This document shows positions 11,380 through 15,100 of a stretch of DNA of 64,000 nt, piece after piece (within the stretch, counting starts at the first letter, position 1; each line of letters begins with the position of its first letter). The DNA lies in NCBI GenBank assembly GCA_965208575.1, contig CBDBOV010000004.1, positions 256,001 to 320,000 of the forward strand, written 5' to 3'. This stretch comes from Spirochaetia bacterium (GTDB taxonomy: Bacteria > Spirochaetota > Spirochaetia > SZUA-6 > Bin103). Below the pieces are notes generated by a model. That model saw only the letters and a list, made by a program, of their open reading frames with translations, had not been told where the DNA came from and ran no database searches. The translations under genes were made by a program, and so were the position numbers.

Positions 11380-12153
11380 GTGCGCCCGGTGCTGCGCGGG
11401 CGGGGCCGGCGCGCGGCAGTTGAACGGCGGCGGGTATTCTGGTACCTATCGAGTGTGTCGCTGACGAGCGTTGTGCGGCTTGCGGTGGCGGTTCTGACTG
11501 CGGCGCTGCTGTCGAGCTGCAACGGAGACGATTCCCAGGCCTCGCCGGCCGCGGAGCGGACGGCGGCGGCGGAAGGCGGCGCCGAAACCAGCGATGGCAG
11601 CTTGCAAGCGGCGGCCGGGTCCGATTCCGCGCAGCCGCCCTCCGCGTCCGGGGCGGAGCTGGATGCGTGGTTCCTCCACCGGAGTGCGCCCCGCCTGCTG
11701 CCACACGACTACGAGATCGGGCCATTGCAGGATCTGCTTGCGGCCGGGGGTACCGAACGCGAGGTGCTGGACACCCTGCTGTCGTTTCTCGGCTCGCTCG
11801 CCGAGGGGAAGATAGCGGAAGCGGCTCTTGCTTCGGAACGCCGGCAAAGCCTGTCCAGGTCGTTGCGGTTCCACGTGCGTGACGGGCGGTTGCCGCACGC
11901 GGCACGGATCGGTGCGGTGACTGTCACGGAAGACCAGGTATACGTCGCCCTGCGCCTGTTCGGCGAACCCGGCCGGGTGGCGGGAGAGGCATACCTGGAA
12001 GCCACGCCCGACGGGTGGCGCATTGCCGACCTGCAACTTGACCTGCATCGGCTGGCACAGCCGTACCAGGTAGCGGCGGAGTTCGAGCCGAGTGCCGCAC
12101 GCTGGCTGCTCCTGAGAAACAACAATCAGGCGGCCTCCGGGACAAGCTCATAA
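11380..12153 (+). CDS. Hypothetical lipoprotein with C-terminus altered by IS insertion
   Basis: Lipobox-like 'LLSSC'; the last 12 residues are read from IS sequence; true start probably downstream. Confidence 0.7.
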   Translation: MRPVLRGRGRRAAVERRRVFWYLSSVSLTSVVRLAVAVLTAALLSSCNGDDSQASPAAERTAAAEGGAETSDGSLQAAAGSDSAQPPSASGAELDAWFLHRSAPRLLPHDYEIGPLQDLLAAGGTEREVLDTLLSFLGSLAEGKIAEAALASERRQSLSRSLRFHVRDGRLPHAARIGAVTVTEDQVYVALRLFGEPGRVAGEAYLEATPDGWRIADLQLDLHRLAQPYQVAAEFEPSAARWLLLRNNNQAASGTSS

Positions 12154-13514
12154 CCGAGTGCGTGTGCCTGCCTTCGGAGCCGGCGTTCAAAGCGGCGCCG
12201 GTCCTGGCGCTCCTCGGCGGCGAGGATGCTGTCATCGTAGGCCACGCGATGCGTGATCAGATGGTAGATGATCCGAGCCAGTTTATGCGCGACTGCAGTG
12301 GTCGCTTCGGGAGTACCCAGACGCGCCCGCATGCGGCGGAAGTGCTGGCCCAGGGCCGATGGGCTGCGGTACAACGACTGGGTCGCCCAGTGCAGCGCCT
12401 GGGCGGCCCGATTGGTGCCCCGACCGGTGTGCGAGCTGATGATCTTGCCGCCGGTGATCTGGTTGTGGGGGCACAGGTGCAGCCAGGAGGCGAATTGCGG
12501 TGCGGTCGGAAAGCGGGACAGTTCCGGGCCGAGTTCGGTGAACAGAACCAGCGCCGTACTTTCGCCGATGCCGGGAATCAGCGTCAGGTCAGTGCCGAAC
12601 AGGTGCGTAAGGTGGCCGCGCAGGTCGAACCGCTTGGCCGGTGACTCGGTTGGCGCCTCGGGCTCCGCATCGATTCCCTCATCCGGTGGGTCGTCGCCCA
12701 CCGCGCCGGGTGGCTCGCTGCTGGCTTCGAACGCGCGGATGCCGGCTTCGATTTCCTGATCGCACTCCGTGATGAGTTGTTGGTAGTGGGCATAGGTCGC
12801 TCGCGCGTGCCGCAACGCCAACAGGTGCTCGGCGCGCCAGTCGCCCTGCAGCGCCTTGATCAAGGTCTCGCGGCTGGCTTTGATCCGCCGGTCGGCCAGA
12901 GCGGCCAACCGCGCCGGATCCCGCTCACCCGCCAGGATAGCGTCCGTAATGGCCAGACCGGTCGTCCCCGTCAGGTCAGAGATGGCATGGTGCAGATGCA
13001 CGTTCATCTGGCTGTACGCCTTCTGCATGTGCAACACGCTGCGCGACGCCATCTTGATCAAGGTGTCGCGATGGCGCAGCACCGAGCGCAGTGCACACAC
13101 CTCGTCGGCAGGGCGGAATGAGCCGCGCAGCAATCCCACCGAGTGCAGGTAGCGCAACCACTCGCAGTCGGCCACGTCGGACTTCCGACCGGGTACCGAG
13201 TGCACGTGACGCGCATTCACCAGCACCACGTCGAAGCCGTGTGCCTCCAGGATCTGATACACCGGAATCCAGTACACACCGGTGGACTCCATCGCCACCG
13301 TGGTGACCTCGCATTCCTTGAGCCAGTCGGCCAAGGCGTGCAGGTCCGCGGTGAACGTAGCAAAGTTCCGGATCGGGTCCGGGTCGCGCTCCGGGCGCAC
13401 AGCCGCGTACACCTCGGTAGCGCCTATGTCCAAGCCGGCAGCGTCCGGGTGCATCACCTTTGGTTGCGCTGTGCGACTGCCCTTGCCCTTGCGTCTGTGT
13501 CTGCGTCGTGCCAT
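12126..13514 (-). CDS. IS110-family DEDD transposase/recombinase
   Basis: RuvC-like DEDD residues in GLDIG, MESTGVYW, KSDVADC; Transposase_20 region 'IPGIG...FASWLHLCP...TGG', 'AVAHKLARIIY'; GGAGG RBS before ATG 13514. Confidence 0.97.
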   Translation of the reverse strand: MARRRHRRKGKGSRTAQPKVMHPDAAGLDIGATEVYAAVRPERDPDPIRNFATFTADLHALADWLKECEVTTVAMESTGVYWIPVYQILEAHGFDVVLVNARHVHSVPGRKSDVADCEWLRYLHSVGLLRGSFRPADEVCALRSVLRHRDTLIKMASRSVLHMQKAYSQMNVHLHHAISDLTGTTGLAITDAILAGERDPARLAALADRRIKASRETLIKALQGDWRAEHLLALRHARATYAHYQQLITECDQEIEAGIRAFEASSEPPGAVGDDPPDEGIDAEPEAPTESPAKRFDLRGHLTHLFGTDLTLIPGIGESTALVLFTELGPELSRFPTAPQFASWLHLCPHNQITGGKIISSHTGRGTNRAAQALHWATQSLYRSPSALGQHFRRMRARLGTPEATTAVAHKLARIIYHLITHRVAYDDSILAAEERQDRRRFERRLRRQAHALGYELVPEAA

Positions 13515-13530
13515 GAAACCTCCGCTACGA

Positions 13531-13717
13531 CTGAGTGGTGCGGCCAAGGCGTGTGTAGCAGGTATTCTCCTGAACGGGATGATCGCCACCCGGCCGCGCC
13601 GGCTGACAACCTCACCAATGACTACGCCACCCGCCCCGGGGCCAAGCTCTTGAACGGGTTCGCAGAACGTAACGCCAGTGACGCGCCGGCCTACTTTCGC
13701 GCTCCACCCAGAACTCT
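13531..13717 (-). ncRNA. Candidate IS110 bridge/seek RNA
   Basis: Upstream non-coding end of the IS; TATAGT -10 at 13724-13729(-); closing stem 13700-13711 with 13531-13542; nested hairpins; two repeated modules. Confidence 0.65.
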
Positions 13718-13792
13718 GCCCACACTATAGCTCACCCTTGTTTCTTTCATGACTGCGCCGGCCCAGGGGCCGGTGGGATAGCTCTTGAGTCC

Positions 13793-15100
13793 GTGATCGG
13801 GAGGTGGCGCCGACCGCACGCGGCCGGTGTGCTGGTGTTGCTCCTGGCTGCCGGTGCGGCGCCGCTCGCGGCACAGGTGCCGCGCGCCCCGCACGCGGCG
13901 CAGGGCCCGCCGGCGGCGGAAGGCGACCAGGTGTCTGCACCGGCGGAAATAGACCGATTGGCGGCGCGCGCCGCGCTCTTGCTGCACCGGCAGGTGCCGG
14001 ATCGAGCCGGCGCAACCATCTGGCTGCTTCCCTTCCTGACCGACACGGGGGTACCGACGCGCCTCGGTCACCGCCTGCAGAGCGCCGTGCACCTGCGGCT
14101 GCTGCGTCACTATCGCTCAGCGGAGATACGGGTCGTGGAGCGGCGGCCGATTGCCGGCGTTGCACCGGCGACCGGCGCACTGCCCGCCGGCGCCGCGTCG
14201 GCGGCTCATGCGCTGGAGTTGGAGATGCAGCCGTTTCGCGACATCCTGAGGGTAGTCCTGCGGGTCCGCAGTTCGGGTATGGTGAGTGACGGCGAATGGA
14301 TCGACCTGCCGGTCAACGAGGAACTGTGGGAGTTGCTCGACGGCGCGGAGGCCGGCGTGCCTCGTTCCGGCGACCTGCCATCCACCGCGGCGGGCGTTGA
14401 ACCGGAAGCATCGCGGACCCCCCTGCCGGCCGCGATCTCGGTCGACCAGGGCCAGCACCGGTACACCTCGGCGGGTGAGGACTGGGTTGCTCTGCAGATC
14501 CCCGCTCCCGGATTCTACCTGCTCGAGGGGCGCTCCTTCGCCGGTCCCCTGGCGGTGTCCCTGCACTACGACCGCCGCGGCGCGCCGGTAGTGACGGGGC
14601 GGGCAGACGCACCCTCCCCTGCCGGCCGCGATCCCGAAGGACTGCCCCGGGGCGTGGATAGCAAGCTCGGGATCTTCTCGGGACTGCGGAAAAGCTACGC
14701 TCGCGTCAGCACGACAACCGGTGACGAGGTGGCGTATTACCTGCGCTTGCGTCCGCTGGACGCCGAGCGCCGCTTCGCCGACGGAACTGCACATGAGGTT
14801 CCGCTCGAGCGCGGCACCGGGTTCCAGACGCTGCGCGTGTTTCGCTCCGGCTCGTACCGGGTGGTTGTCGAAGCCGGCGCCGGCGAAGCCGAGCTGCGCG
14901 TGTTCGGCGTACCGCACATGCGTTCCGTGGCACCGGTCTCCGGAGCGCAACCCGCGGAGCGCGGTTCCACCGGAGCGGGCGGGCAGCGATACGAGCTTGC
15001 AGCCGGAGACTACCTCATCGAGGTGACGTCGGCCCCGGCGGCGCGCACGGCCCGGTTGTGCTGGGCGGCATCCGACTCGTCCGCCCGCTGCGCAGGTTGA
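13793..15100 (+). CDS. Exported hypothetical protein
   Basis: Signal peptide ('AAPLAA|Q'); beta-rich C-terminal repeats (PGFYLLE, SGSYRVVV, AGDYLIEV) resembling PPC-type domains. Confidence 0.6.
   Translation: MIGRWRRPHAAGVLVLLLAAGAAPLAAQVPRAPHAAQGPPAAEGDQVSAPAEIDRLAARAALLLHRQVPDRAGATIWLLPFLTDTGVPTRLGHRLQSAVHLRLLRHYRSAEIRVVERRPIAGVAPATGALPAGAASAAHALELEMQPFRDILRVVLRVRSSGMVSDGEWIDLPVNEELWELLDGAEAGVPRSGDLPSTAAGVEPEASRTPLPAAISVDQGQHRYTSAGEDWVALQIPAPGFYLLEGRSFAGPLAVSLHYDRRGAPVVTGRADAPSPAGRDPEGLPRGVDSKLGIFSGLRKSYARVSTTTGDEVAYYLRLRPLDAERRFADGTAHEVPLERGTGFQTLRVFRSGSYRVVVEAGAGEAELRVFGVPHMRSVAPVSGAQPAERGSTGAGGQRYELAAGDYLIEVTSAPAARTARLCWAASDSSARCAG

Follow-up and report, generated by a model that had tools for sequence, protein, structure and literature searches.

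A 1,673-bp IS110-family insertion sequence from a Spirochaetia bacterium, with exact ends and a predicted bridge RNA in its left end

The 64,000-nt stretch of contig CBDBOV010000004.1 of Spirochaetia bacterium GCA_965208575.1 that was analysed here, referred to in its entirety as the window, carries at positions 12109-13781 an insertion sequence of the IS110 family, 1,673 bp in length and present in 15 copies in the source genome, which very probably relies on RNA-guided recombination for its movement. The element is a bridge-RNA insertion sequence of the ordinary kind, albeit a moderately unusual variant, and a new member of that class, belonging to a lineage in which the loop layout and the repeats are unlike those set out in the accounts of the studied models cited below. 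Sequences are given in element orientation, which is that of the recombinase gene and of the minus strand of the window, unless the plus strand is specified; the core dinucleotide AG accordingly appears as CT on the plus strand.

Affiliation to the IS110 family, as had been proposed in an initial annotation of the window, is borne out by matches of the encoded recombinase to the Pfam profiles DEDD_Tnp_IS110 (E 6.4e-20) and Transposase_20 (E 1.5e-11), and by a score of 251 bits against the NCBIfam model NF033542, 'IS110 family RNA-guided transposase', the cut-off of which is 140. The sole match in the PDB is IS621 (E 1.3e-7), over the C-terminal part of the protein. Non-coding DNA amounts to 267 nt upstream of the recombinase gene versus 15 nt downstream, in agreement with the long upstream end described in the initial annotation. 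The source genome (G000) contains 15 full copies of the element with 99.8-100% identity, one pair of which is in tandem, and these near-identical copies, including the pair and an insertion into a permease paralogue described below, point to recent activity. The block common to all 15 copies extends from 12108/12109 to 13788/13789 in the window, the anchor-to-anchor distance between junctions is 1673 in 15/15 copies, and alignment of the flanks revealed that all copies have in common CTATCCCACCGG... at the left and ...TTGTTGTTTCTCAG at the right. Left junctions read x-TCAAGAG-CTATCC at 14/14 independent sites (x being C in 12, G in 2 and A in 1 of 15 aligned rows), while right junctions read TTTCTCAGGAG-y (TTTC-TCAGGAG-y) in 15/15 copies, y being C at 9, T at 3, A at 1 and G at 1 of the 14 independent sites. 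A single base separates the left from the right junction (TCA-A-GAG versus TCA-G-GAG), target and donor differ at one of eight bases, and neither the junctions nor the empty sites show target duplication past the short shared core, a point on which the initial annotation was correct. Contigs of runs X5 and X8, from two other studies, carry the element with 0 differences beside other flanks, with breaks at 12109 and 13788/13789, indicating that the same element is present in other samples. A variant of the element with 98% identity is carried by run X13.

Two readings of the crossover point were compared, namely reading A, with target xTCAA|GAG|y and donor ...TCAG|GAG|CTATCC, and reading B, with target xTCA|GGAGy and donor ...TCA|AGAGCTATCC. 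Six further copies supplied left flanks with which genomes G006, G001 and G007 were searched for empty sites; orthologues extending to the junction were found for three of the six flanks in G006 and for one in G001, whereas the remaining three flanks (L002, L004 and L008) gave no match extending to the junction in these genomes. All four of these empty sites read CTCAAGAG (CTCAA-GAG) and continue immediately into the right-flank sequence of the corresponding occupied site, and none reads CTCAGGAG. A second line of evidence comes from the copy at G000 C6:987586-989267 (L117:383-1378), which interrupts a member of an ABC-transporter permease family (BPD_transp_1, E 6.8e-32) that has more than 100 BLAST matches in the source genome. 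Among the 58 paralogues that could be aligned across the insertion site, CTCAAGAGC is present in 12 and CTCAGGAGC in none, and the key base is A in all 57 ungapped rows. Although a perfect CTCAAGAGC is thus available in 12 paralogues, a single member of the family is occupied. Of the insertion sites, own-genome paralogues were informative for the permease site alone, the paralogue of the tandem site being too diverged. The third line of evidence is the tandem pair itself, which comprises two complete copies head to tail (G000 C4:1265898-1269252) with the 9 bases CTCAGGAGC common to both; the joint between them reads TTTCTCAGGAGCTATCC, i.e. the predicted circle junction, present here as chromosomal DNA, whereas the joint predicted by reading B occurs 0 times in the source genome.

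Since the other empty sites, the permease paralogues and the tandem joint all fit reading A, this reading stands, with the element at 12109-13781 or, equally, at 12111-13783, and with CTCAAG-AG as target. From five empty sites (four in G006 and one in G001) and the 58 paralogous sites, the length of the element is set at 1,673 bp. In addition, a contig of run X13, which may not be independent of G006, skips from 12112 to 13786, a jump of 1673 nt that is ambiguous by 4 nt. The ends, the target CTCAAG-AG (in the context ...GGA-CTCAAGAG-CAGCC...) and the donor junction ...TTTCTCAGG-AG-CTATCC..., which is seen in the tandem pair as ...TTGTTTCTCAGG-AG-CTATCCCACC..., can be regarded as established.

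The window's own site is less straightforward. G006, the closest relative, with flanks that are 91-94% identical, has 9 bases instead of the element (cgctggct GCTCCTGAG tccgtgatcc, plus strand), and its empty allele has G as opposed to A at the discriminating base, which counts against reading A, as does the fact that we infer the ancestral A at this site from the left junction itself, although G007 and G001, which read GCTGTTGAG, carry the A-equivalent base. The empty alleles at the window site therefore establish that the site was empty, rather than deciding between the two readings. The G006 allele, being CTCAGGAGC in element orientation, is what would be expected were the crossover to lie within the TCA block, with x-TCA-GGAGy as target, TTTC-TCA-AGAGCTATCC as donor and the A of the left junction belonging to the element; in that case, 9 nt of the left-end RNA strand UCAAGAGCU would agree with the donor. 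This placement is nevertheless barely tenable, given that four other empty sites read CTCAAGAG, that the permease paralogues lack CTCAGGAGC altogether, that the tandem junction reads TCAGGAGC in place of the joint required, and that G001 and G007 have the A-equivalent base at the window site. The reconstruction in the initial annotation, in which the element ran from about 12113/12116 to 13749/13752 with a TCA core, GGCGCAG-TCA-GGAGC as target and subterminal 8-bp repeats at both tips, retains practically no likelihood. The strings on which it was built do exist (GCTCC-TGA-GAAACAA at 12108-12122 and TTGTTTCTTTCA-TGA-CTGCGCC at 13738-13759, both plus strand), and deletion of 12116-13752 does formally leave an open reading ...RWLLL-TAPAQGPVG to a stop nine codons on. 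However, the shared TGA is coincidental, the actual core being AG, and the left boundary was off by a few bases. The right boundary lies at 13781/13783, which places the proposed junction 37 bp inside the element; indeed, these 37 further bases (13753-13789), including the text that was translated as TAPAQGPVG-stop, are common to all 15 copies and are therefore element DNA. At the window locus the G006 empty allele reads GCTCCTGAGTCCGTGA and not the predicted CTCCTGACTGCG, none of the G006 empty sites contains CTGCGCC, and the X13 joint skips 1673 nt rather than approximately 1637. Likewise, the circle junction that had been predicted as TTGTTTC-TCA-TGAAAGAAACAA is in fact TTGTTTCTCAGGAGCTATCC..., and the interrupted gene originally ended ...RWLLLSP-stop, not ...RWLLLTAPAQGPVG, because the pre-insertion plus strand reads ...CGC TGG CTG CTC TTG AGT CCG TGA. 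Exact reconstruction of the boundaries has thus proved possible, as was claimed, albeit with other ends than those proposed; the ends given here replace the earlier ones, and the case illustrates how easily IS110-type ends are misplaced when the donor resembles the target.

The left end of the element encodes a conserved, covarying structured RNA. A recombinase scan of genome contigs yielded 52 related loci with 42-69% identity, mostly in metagenome-assembled genomes (MAGs) of Acidobacteriota, but also in Pseudomonadota, Campylobacterota and Holosporales/Paracaedibacter; one of the loci is a fragment with 86% identity in a Spirochaetia MAG. The upstream regions of 33 related loci aligned well and formed the basis for analysis of covariation. 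RNAalifold predicted five helices in this alignment, with compensatory changes in 12 of 23 pairs; 97.6% of cells are paired, compared with 23-52% in slid controls, and 0 of 500 shuffles reached the observed covariation scores. Within the predicted structure are two similar modules, ...CCCG-UUCAAG-AG-CUUGG (guide and core at 13647-13654) and ...CCCG-UUCAGG-AG-AAU (13567-13574), each of which forms an internal loop flanked by an outer and an inner helix. The 3' strand of each module comprises seven variable bases followed by an invariant AG, and in the 5' strand a variable stretch precedes a conserved A-Y. A long-range helix, CCGGGGC / GCCUUGG in the present element, connects the two modules, and an outer helix, GGGUGG / CCACUC (13704-13709 with 13533-13538), identified by eye, closes the RNA approximately 10 nt before the ribosome-binding site.

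The loop strands correspond to the recombination sites. The sole difference between the 3' strands of the target and donor loops is A versus G, this being the base that distinguishes the left from the right junction, and AG occupies the same register in the guide strands of both loops in 33/33 aligned homologues. In an Acidobacteriota subgroup, the 3' strand of the donor module is constant (AUUGGG-AG) and corresponds to the right-end tip CTTGGG-AG, while that of the target module varies, matching the left flank with 0-2 mismatches. The 5' strand of the target module is complementary to the core G and right flank and changes with them (GCCGAC/G|TCGGC, GGGGAC/G|TCCCC, GGCGAC/G|TCGCT). The right junction could be located in 22 of the 33 loci, and in 14 of these the 5' strand pairs with the core G and right flank in at least five of six places, the corresponding value for the Acidobacteriota subgroup being 12 of 13; none of 2000 permutations of the pairing partners reached the observed mean. 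The order in each loop is therefore as seen in these strands, with the antisense right-side guide first (5') and the long same-sense left-side guide second (3'). Assignment of a right-donor guide is tentative. By eye, in 8/8 lineages, the target-module strand continues past the core with bases identical to the first 1-4 of the left end (CU and CT in the present element), such that CTCAAGAG|CT, as found where a resident copy has its left junction, matches the target-loop strand UUCAAGAGCU better than any other site in the genome; insertion at such a junction accounts for the tandem pair. A locus on Citrobacter freundii plasmid NZ_CP141648.1 (L112, 88952-93256), encoding a 46%-identical recombinase that is widespread on enterobacterial plasmids, has the same left-end modules, together with a 10-bp repeat and two guide strands that apparently have AA, not AG, at the core position.

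The element also carries a perfect 8-bp inverted repeat, in which, on the plus strand, AGAAACAA at 12115-12122 pairs with TTGTTTCT at 13738-13745. The repeat in the initial annotation is thus genuine, although its left arm, being 37-44 nt inside the left end, is not subterminal as had been stated. For the own left end, 27 of 2000 shuffles gave a repeat at least as long. Automatic location of junctions by best guide match produced spurious sites in many loci, hence hand-set anchors were used for the repeat and hairpin counts in 11 lineages, which omit L046 and L079 (left junction unclear) and L086 (right end outside the locus). With these junctions, a perfect repeat of 7-10 bp was found in the same relative places in 11/11 lineages, with the right arm ending 4-6 nt before the element end and the left arm 30-47 nt inside the left end. 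The arms differ by lineage (GTTACTT, TGTTCATC, CGTTCCTT, ATTGTTTCTT and GGGAGTTTCT, among others), and between 0 and 135 of 2000 shuffles per lineage reached the observed length. A short hairpin of differing sequence is located between the left tip and the arm in 11/11 lineages, the energies of which are not individually significant. The repeat is real and functional-looking, and is placed unlike those of IS1111 elements.

Several results weigh against an RNA-guided mode of movement, or against parts of the guide assignment. A single-sequence fold of the left end was no better than shuffles (z = -0.71), an Rfam scan of 11500-14500 at E values up to 1 returned no match, and a scan for consensus promoters and terminators identified none, including no full promoter. 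No circle junction, transcript or RNA end was observed, noting that DNA contigs cannot show a rare circle and that RNA run X21, with 0 reads, is no test of expression. Of 104 CTCAAGAG sites in the source genome, 14 are occupied, and A is present at -10 of the target at 11/14 sites (P = 5e-7) with no matching guide; nor does any strand of the predicted RNA match the C or G found at -9, or the T at both -8 and -7 (for the window copy, -10 to -7 correspond to 13791-13794). On the right side, the 5' strand pairs in only 1-5 of 6 places in lineages outside the Acidobacteriota, and its register is consequently not constant within the clade. For the own right flank, the consensus is limited to two bases, C (9/14) and G (8/14), and fits the CG of GCGCGUCAC only with one base bulged or wobbling, and the own right-side guide register is one base off from that of the subgroup with a clear guide. 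The donor-side complementarity of GGUGGCGUAGU to G|CTATCCCACC overlaps a predicted helix, and a right-donor guide was convincing by eye only in the own element, and not in L047, L073, L075, L078 or L086. The conserved structure could conceivably be a leader that regulates translation of the recombinase, with the protein itself selecting the target, an explanation that gains from the end of the structure lying approximately 10 nt before the ribosome-binding site and from target conservation at -10 to -7 that matches no RNA strand. It is nonetheless very unlikely, since the loop strands follow the flanks across lineages, the one base at which the two loops differ is exactly that distinguishing target from donor, and IS621 and ISEc21, in the experiments described by Durrant 2024 (PMC11208160) and Siddiquee 2024 (PMC11187229), require such an RNA. 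Similarly, the inverted repeat might operate at the level of RNA, either as an extra guide or through 5'-3' pairing of a long transcript. The arms covary in the manner of a helix, and the left arm, if transcribed, would be complementary to the top strand beside the left-donor half; against this, the left arm is upstream of both the -10-like TATAGT and the conserved RNA, and its transcription would depend on an outside start or on a junction promoter, of which none (with -35 in the right end and -10 in the left) was evident from inspection by eye, in which the junction itself was not scanned. We consider an RNA-level role unlikely, and favour a putative role for the repeat as a DNA site for the recombinase or perhaps in pairing of the ends.

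By analogy with IS621 and ISEc21, the RNA-guided element would excise as a circle, the joint of which is predicted to read ...TTGTTTCTCAGGAGCTATCCCACC.... The RNA would be made from a promoter inside the left end, probably by co-transcription with the recombinase gene, and would bridge the circle junction and the target, whereupon the DEDD/serine recombinase would exchange strands at the AG core.

Judged on sequence features, the element would qualify as a member of the IS110 family in the broad sense, on account of its profile matches, site-specific insertion without target duplication, short core and predicted RNA loops that match target and donor. Of the features that separate the IS110 and IS1111 groups in the published descriptions used here, the upstream non-coding end is that of the IS110 group, whereas the presence of a repeat and the guide order are not. 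As described for IS621, each loop's 5' side is paired to the bottom strand along 8-9 nt, and its 3' side to the top strand (Durrant 2024, PMC11208160). In common with IS621, as set out in PMC11208160, PMC11208158 and PDB 8wt6, the element has a DEDD plus Transposase_20 recombinase, a long upstream non-coding end with a structured RNA containing two internal loops, in each loop a same-sense strand (7 nt followed by a 2-nt core) alongside an antisense strand, no duplication beyond the core, and a core that is CT on the opposite DNA strand, as in IS621; the match between the post-core bases of the target loop and the start of the left end recalls the handshake guides of IS621 (PMC11208158). It differs in the remote similarity of the recombinase, which extends over the C-terminal part only and involves proteins of 462 versus 328 residues, and, going by the same accounts, in the reversed order of the loop strands, in having two loops joined by a long-range helix as opposed to two separate stem-loops, in an inverted repeat of 8 bp versus 2-3 bp, and in a promoter that is likely, by inference, to be wholly inside the left end as opposed to across the circle junction.

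The guide order in IS1111-type seekRNAs is reported to be the reverse of that in the IS110-type ISEc21 (Siddiquee 2024, PMC11187229), and if the strand convention of that paper equals the one used here, the present element combines an IS1111-type guide order with an IS110-type upstream RNA gene. On the same proviso, it resembles the IS1111-type elements treated in that paper (ISEc11, ISPa11 and ISKpn4) in that the guide complementary to the top strand precedes that complementary to the bottom strand. Further likenesses are inverted repeats of similar length, 8 bp being within the 7-17 bp given there for the IS1111 group, and a C-terminal L-x-P-x4-TG motif (HLCPHNQITG) that resembles, by eye, the GL-P----S(t)G of IS1111 transposases. 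Conversely, the non-coding region is upstream as opposed to downstream, the right end being only 15 nt, the recombinase has 462 residues versus 330-350, and the extensions beyond the repeat are approximately 36 nt at the left and 6 nt at the right, compared with about 7 bp and 3 bp in the IS1111 elements described. A tblastn search with the recombinase against 72,556 plasmid records gave matches in only 651, which is a further difference from the IS1111 type. With ISEc21 and the IS110 group proper, as presented in PMC11187229, it shares the upstream non-coding region and, presumptively, RNA-dependent movement; its recombinase falls in the upper size range for a subgroup reported at 395-455 residues, and Actinobacterial IS110-family genes have 30-32% identity to it over the full length. 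Nevertheless, the guide order reported for ISEc21 is opposite, and repeats in the IS110 group are described as absent or short and imperfect (2-3 bp), as opposed to the perfect 8 bp observed here and 7-10 bp in the 11 lineages. The remark in the initial annotation that an upstream end combined with inverted repeats is atypical accords in this respect with how Durrant 2024 and Siddiquee 2024 describe the IS110 group. Tandem IS110 modules have been described in 437 cases (Hu et al., bioRxiv 10.64898/2026.08.14.744561), and the head-to-tail pair of complete modules observed here is alike, although the left junction in the present element nearly regenerates the target, because the first left-end base is the preferred right-flank base, whereas junctions are argued in the portion of that paper compared here not to regenerate targets.

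It is possible, though we hold the idea only tentatively, that the element and its relatives, which are distributed in Acidobacteriota, Pseudomonadota, Campylobacterota, Holosporales and on enterobacterial plasmids, constitute a lineage combining an IS110-type upstream guide-RNA gene, an IS1111-type guide order and an inverted repeat whose arms are split between the right tip and a point approximately 35 nt into the left end, a conserved hairpin lying in front of the latter arm. The mirrored layout may already be catalogued, for example among the six diverse bridge RNAs in Extended Data Fig. 10 of Durrant 2024. Were such a lineage real, the placement of the RNA gene, the way in which the recombination site is oriented relative to the element, and the repeats would be separable characters, and the lineage would provide a natural intermediate for considering the divergence of the IS110 and IS1111 groups and the function of the repeats. 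Bridge and seek RNAs are under development as programmable recombination tools, for which natural variants define the fixed features; the mirrored loops, the AG core (CT on the other strand), the 15-nt right end and the covarying long-range repeat represent testable material with respect to insertion orientation and repeat recognition.

Table 1. Features of the element and of the genes on either side of it, in window coordinates; motifs on the minus strand are given in element orientation.
Feature	Position	Strand	Basis or remarks
Interrupted lipoprotein-like gene	11380..12108	+	Lipobox LLSSC in translation; pre-insertion continuation CTC TTG AGT CCG TGA (13782-13796)
Insertion sequence, 1,673 bp with right-end core copy (equally 12111-13783 with other copy)	12109..13781	-	15 copies, empty sites
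Core dinucleotide AG, right-end junction	12109..12110	-	Crossover right of A/G position (12112 / 13785), left of variable flank base
Right end TTGTTGTTTCTCAGG, 15 nt between stop codon and core	12111..12125	-	Matches donor-loop 3' strand UUCAGG-AG
Left-donor half TCTCAGG	12111-12117	-	Within right end
Right-end repeat arm TTGTTTCT, ending 6 nt before element end	12115..12122	-	Pairing with left arm
Recombinase/transposase gene, 462 aa, ATG at 13514, GGAGG at 13519-13523	12126..13514	-	Open reading frame, profiles
Left non-coding end, 267 nt	13515..13781	-	Sequence, copy alignment
Predicted bridge RNA, from 5' to 3' strand of outer helix GGGUGG / CCACUC; ends approximate	13533..13709	-	Conservation in 33 sequences, covariation
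Donor-loop 3' strand UUCAGG-AG, same sense as right-end tip and core	13567..13574	-	Junctions, alignment
Donor-loop 5' strand GCGUAGUCAU, tentative right-donor guide complementary to G|CTAT of left-end tip	13618..13627	-	By eye
Target-loop 3' strand UUCAAG-AG, same sense as left half of target and core	13647..13654	-	Matches CTCAAGAG at 14/14 independent left junctions; U opposite C in first place
Target-loop 5' strand GCGCGUCAC, right-target guide side, register uncertain	13678..13686	-	Homologous strand pairs with core G and right flank
-10-like hexamer TATAGT, about 14 nt upstream of outer helix of RNA	13724..13729	-	Comparable hexamers in same place in homologues (TATACT, TATTAT, TAAAAT, CATACT)
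Left-end repeat arm AGAAACAA, 37-44 nt inside left end	13738..13745	-	Pairing with right arm
Palindrome CCGGCC-CCTG-GGCCGG between left-end tip and repeat arm	13758..13773	-	Hairpin in about same place in 11/11 lineages
Second core copy, left-end junction	13782..13783	-	Same basis as first copy; followed on + strand by CTTGAG (13784-13789), the target-derived left half CTCAAG
Downstream gene, GTG start at 13793-13795	13793..15100	+	GTGA overlap with upstream stop (13793-13796) before insertion

The element is inserted at the 3' end of a lipoprotein-like gene, for which no Pfam family was matched. Prior to insertion, the TGA of this gene (13794-13796) overlapped the GTG start codon of the next gene (13793-13795), and the GTGA overlap is kept in G006, G007 and G001. 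Insertion swaps the last two residues of the lipoprotein for 14 others, and puts 1.67 kb of oppositely read DNA between two translationally coupled genes.

Other IS110-family sequences are also present in the source genome. These comprise a second, different recombinase gene (G000 C6:68538-69722, 168 bits), a fragment approximately 75% identical in DNA to the element (G000 C4:146591-147232) and a short, weak match of 24.9 bits (G000 C3:283304-283429). Additionally, at G000 C2:51117-51817, a 293-bp fragment of the right part of the element (97.6% identical) precedes a duplicate (97.6%) of the right flank that borders the neighbouring full copy at C2:52107-53788, and represents a local duplication of the right junction.

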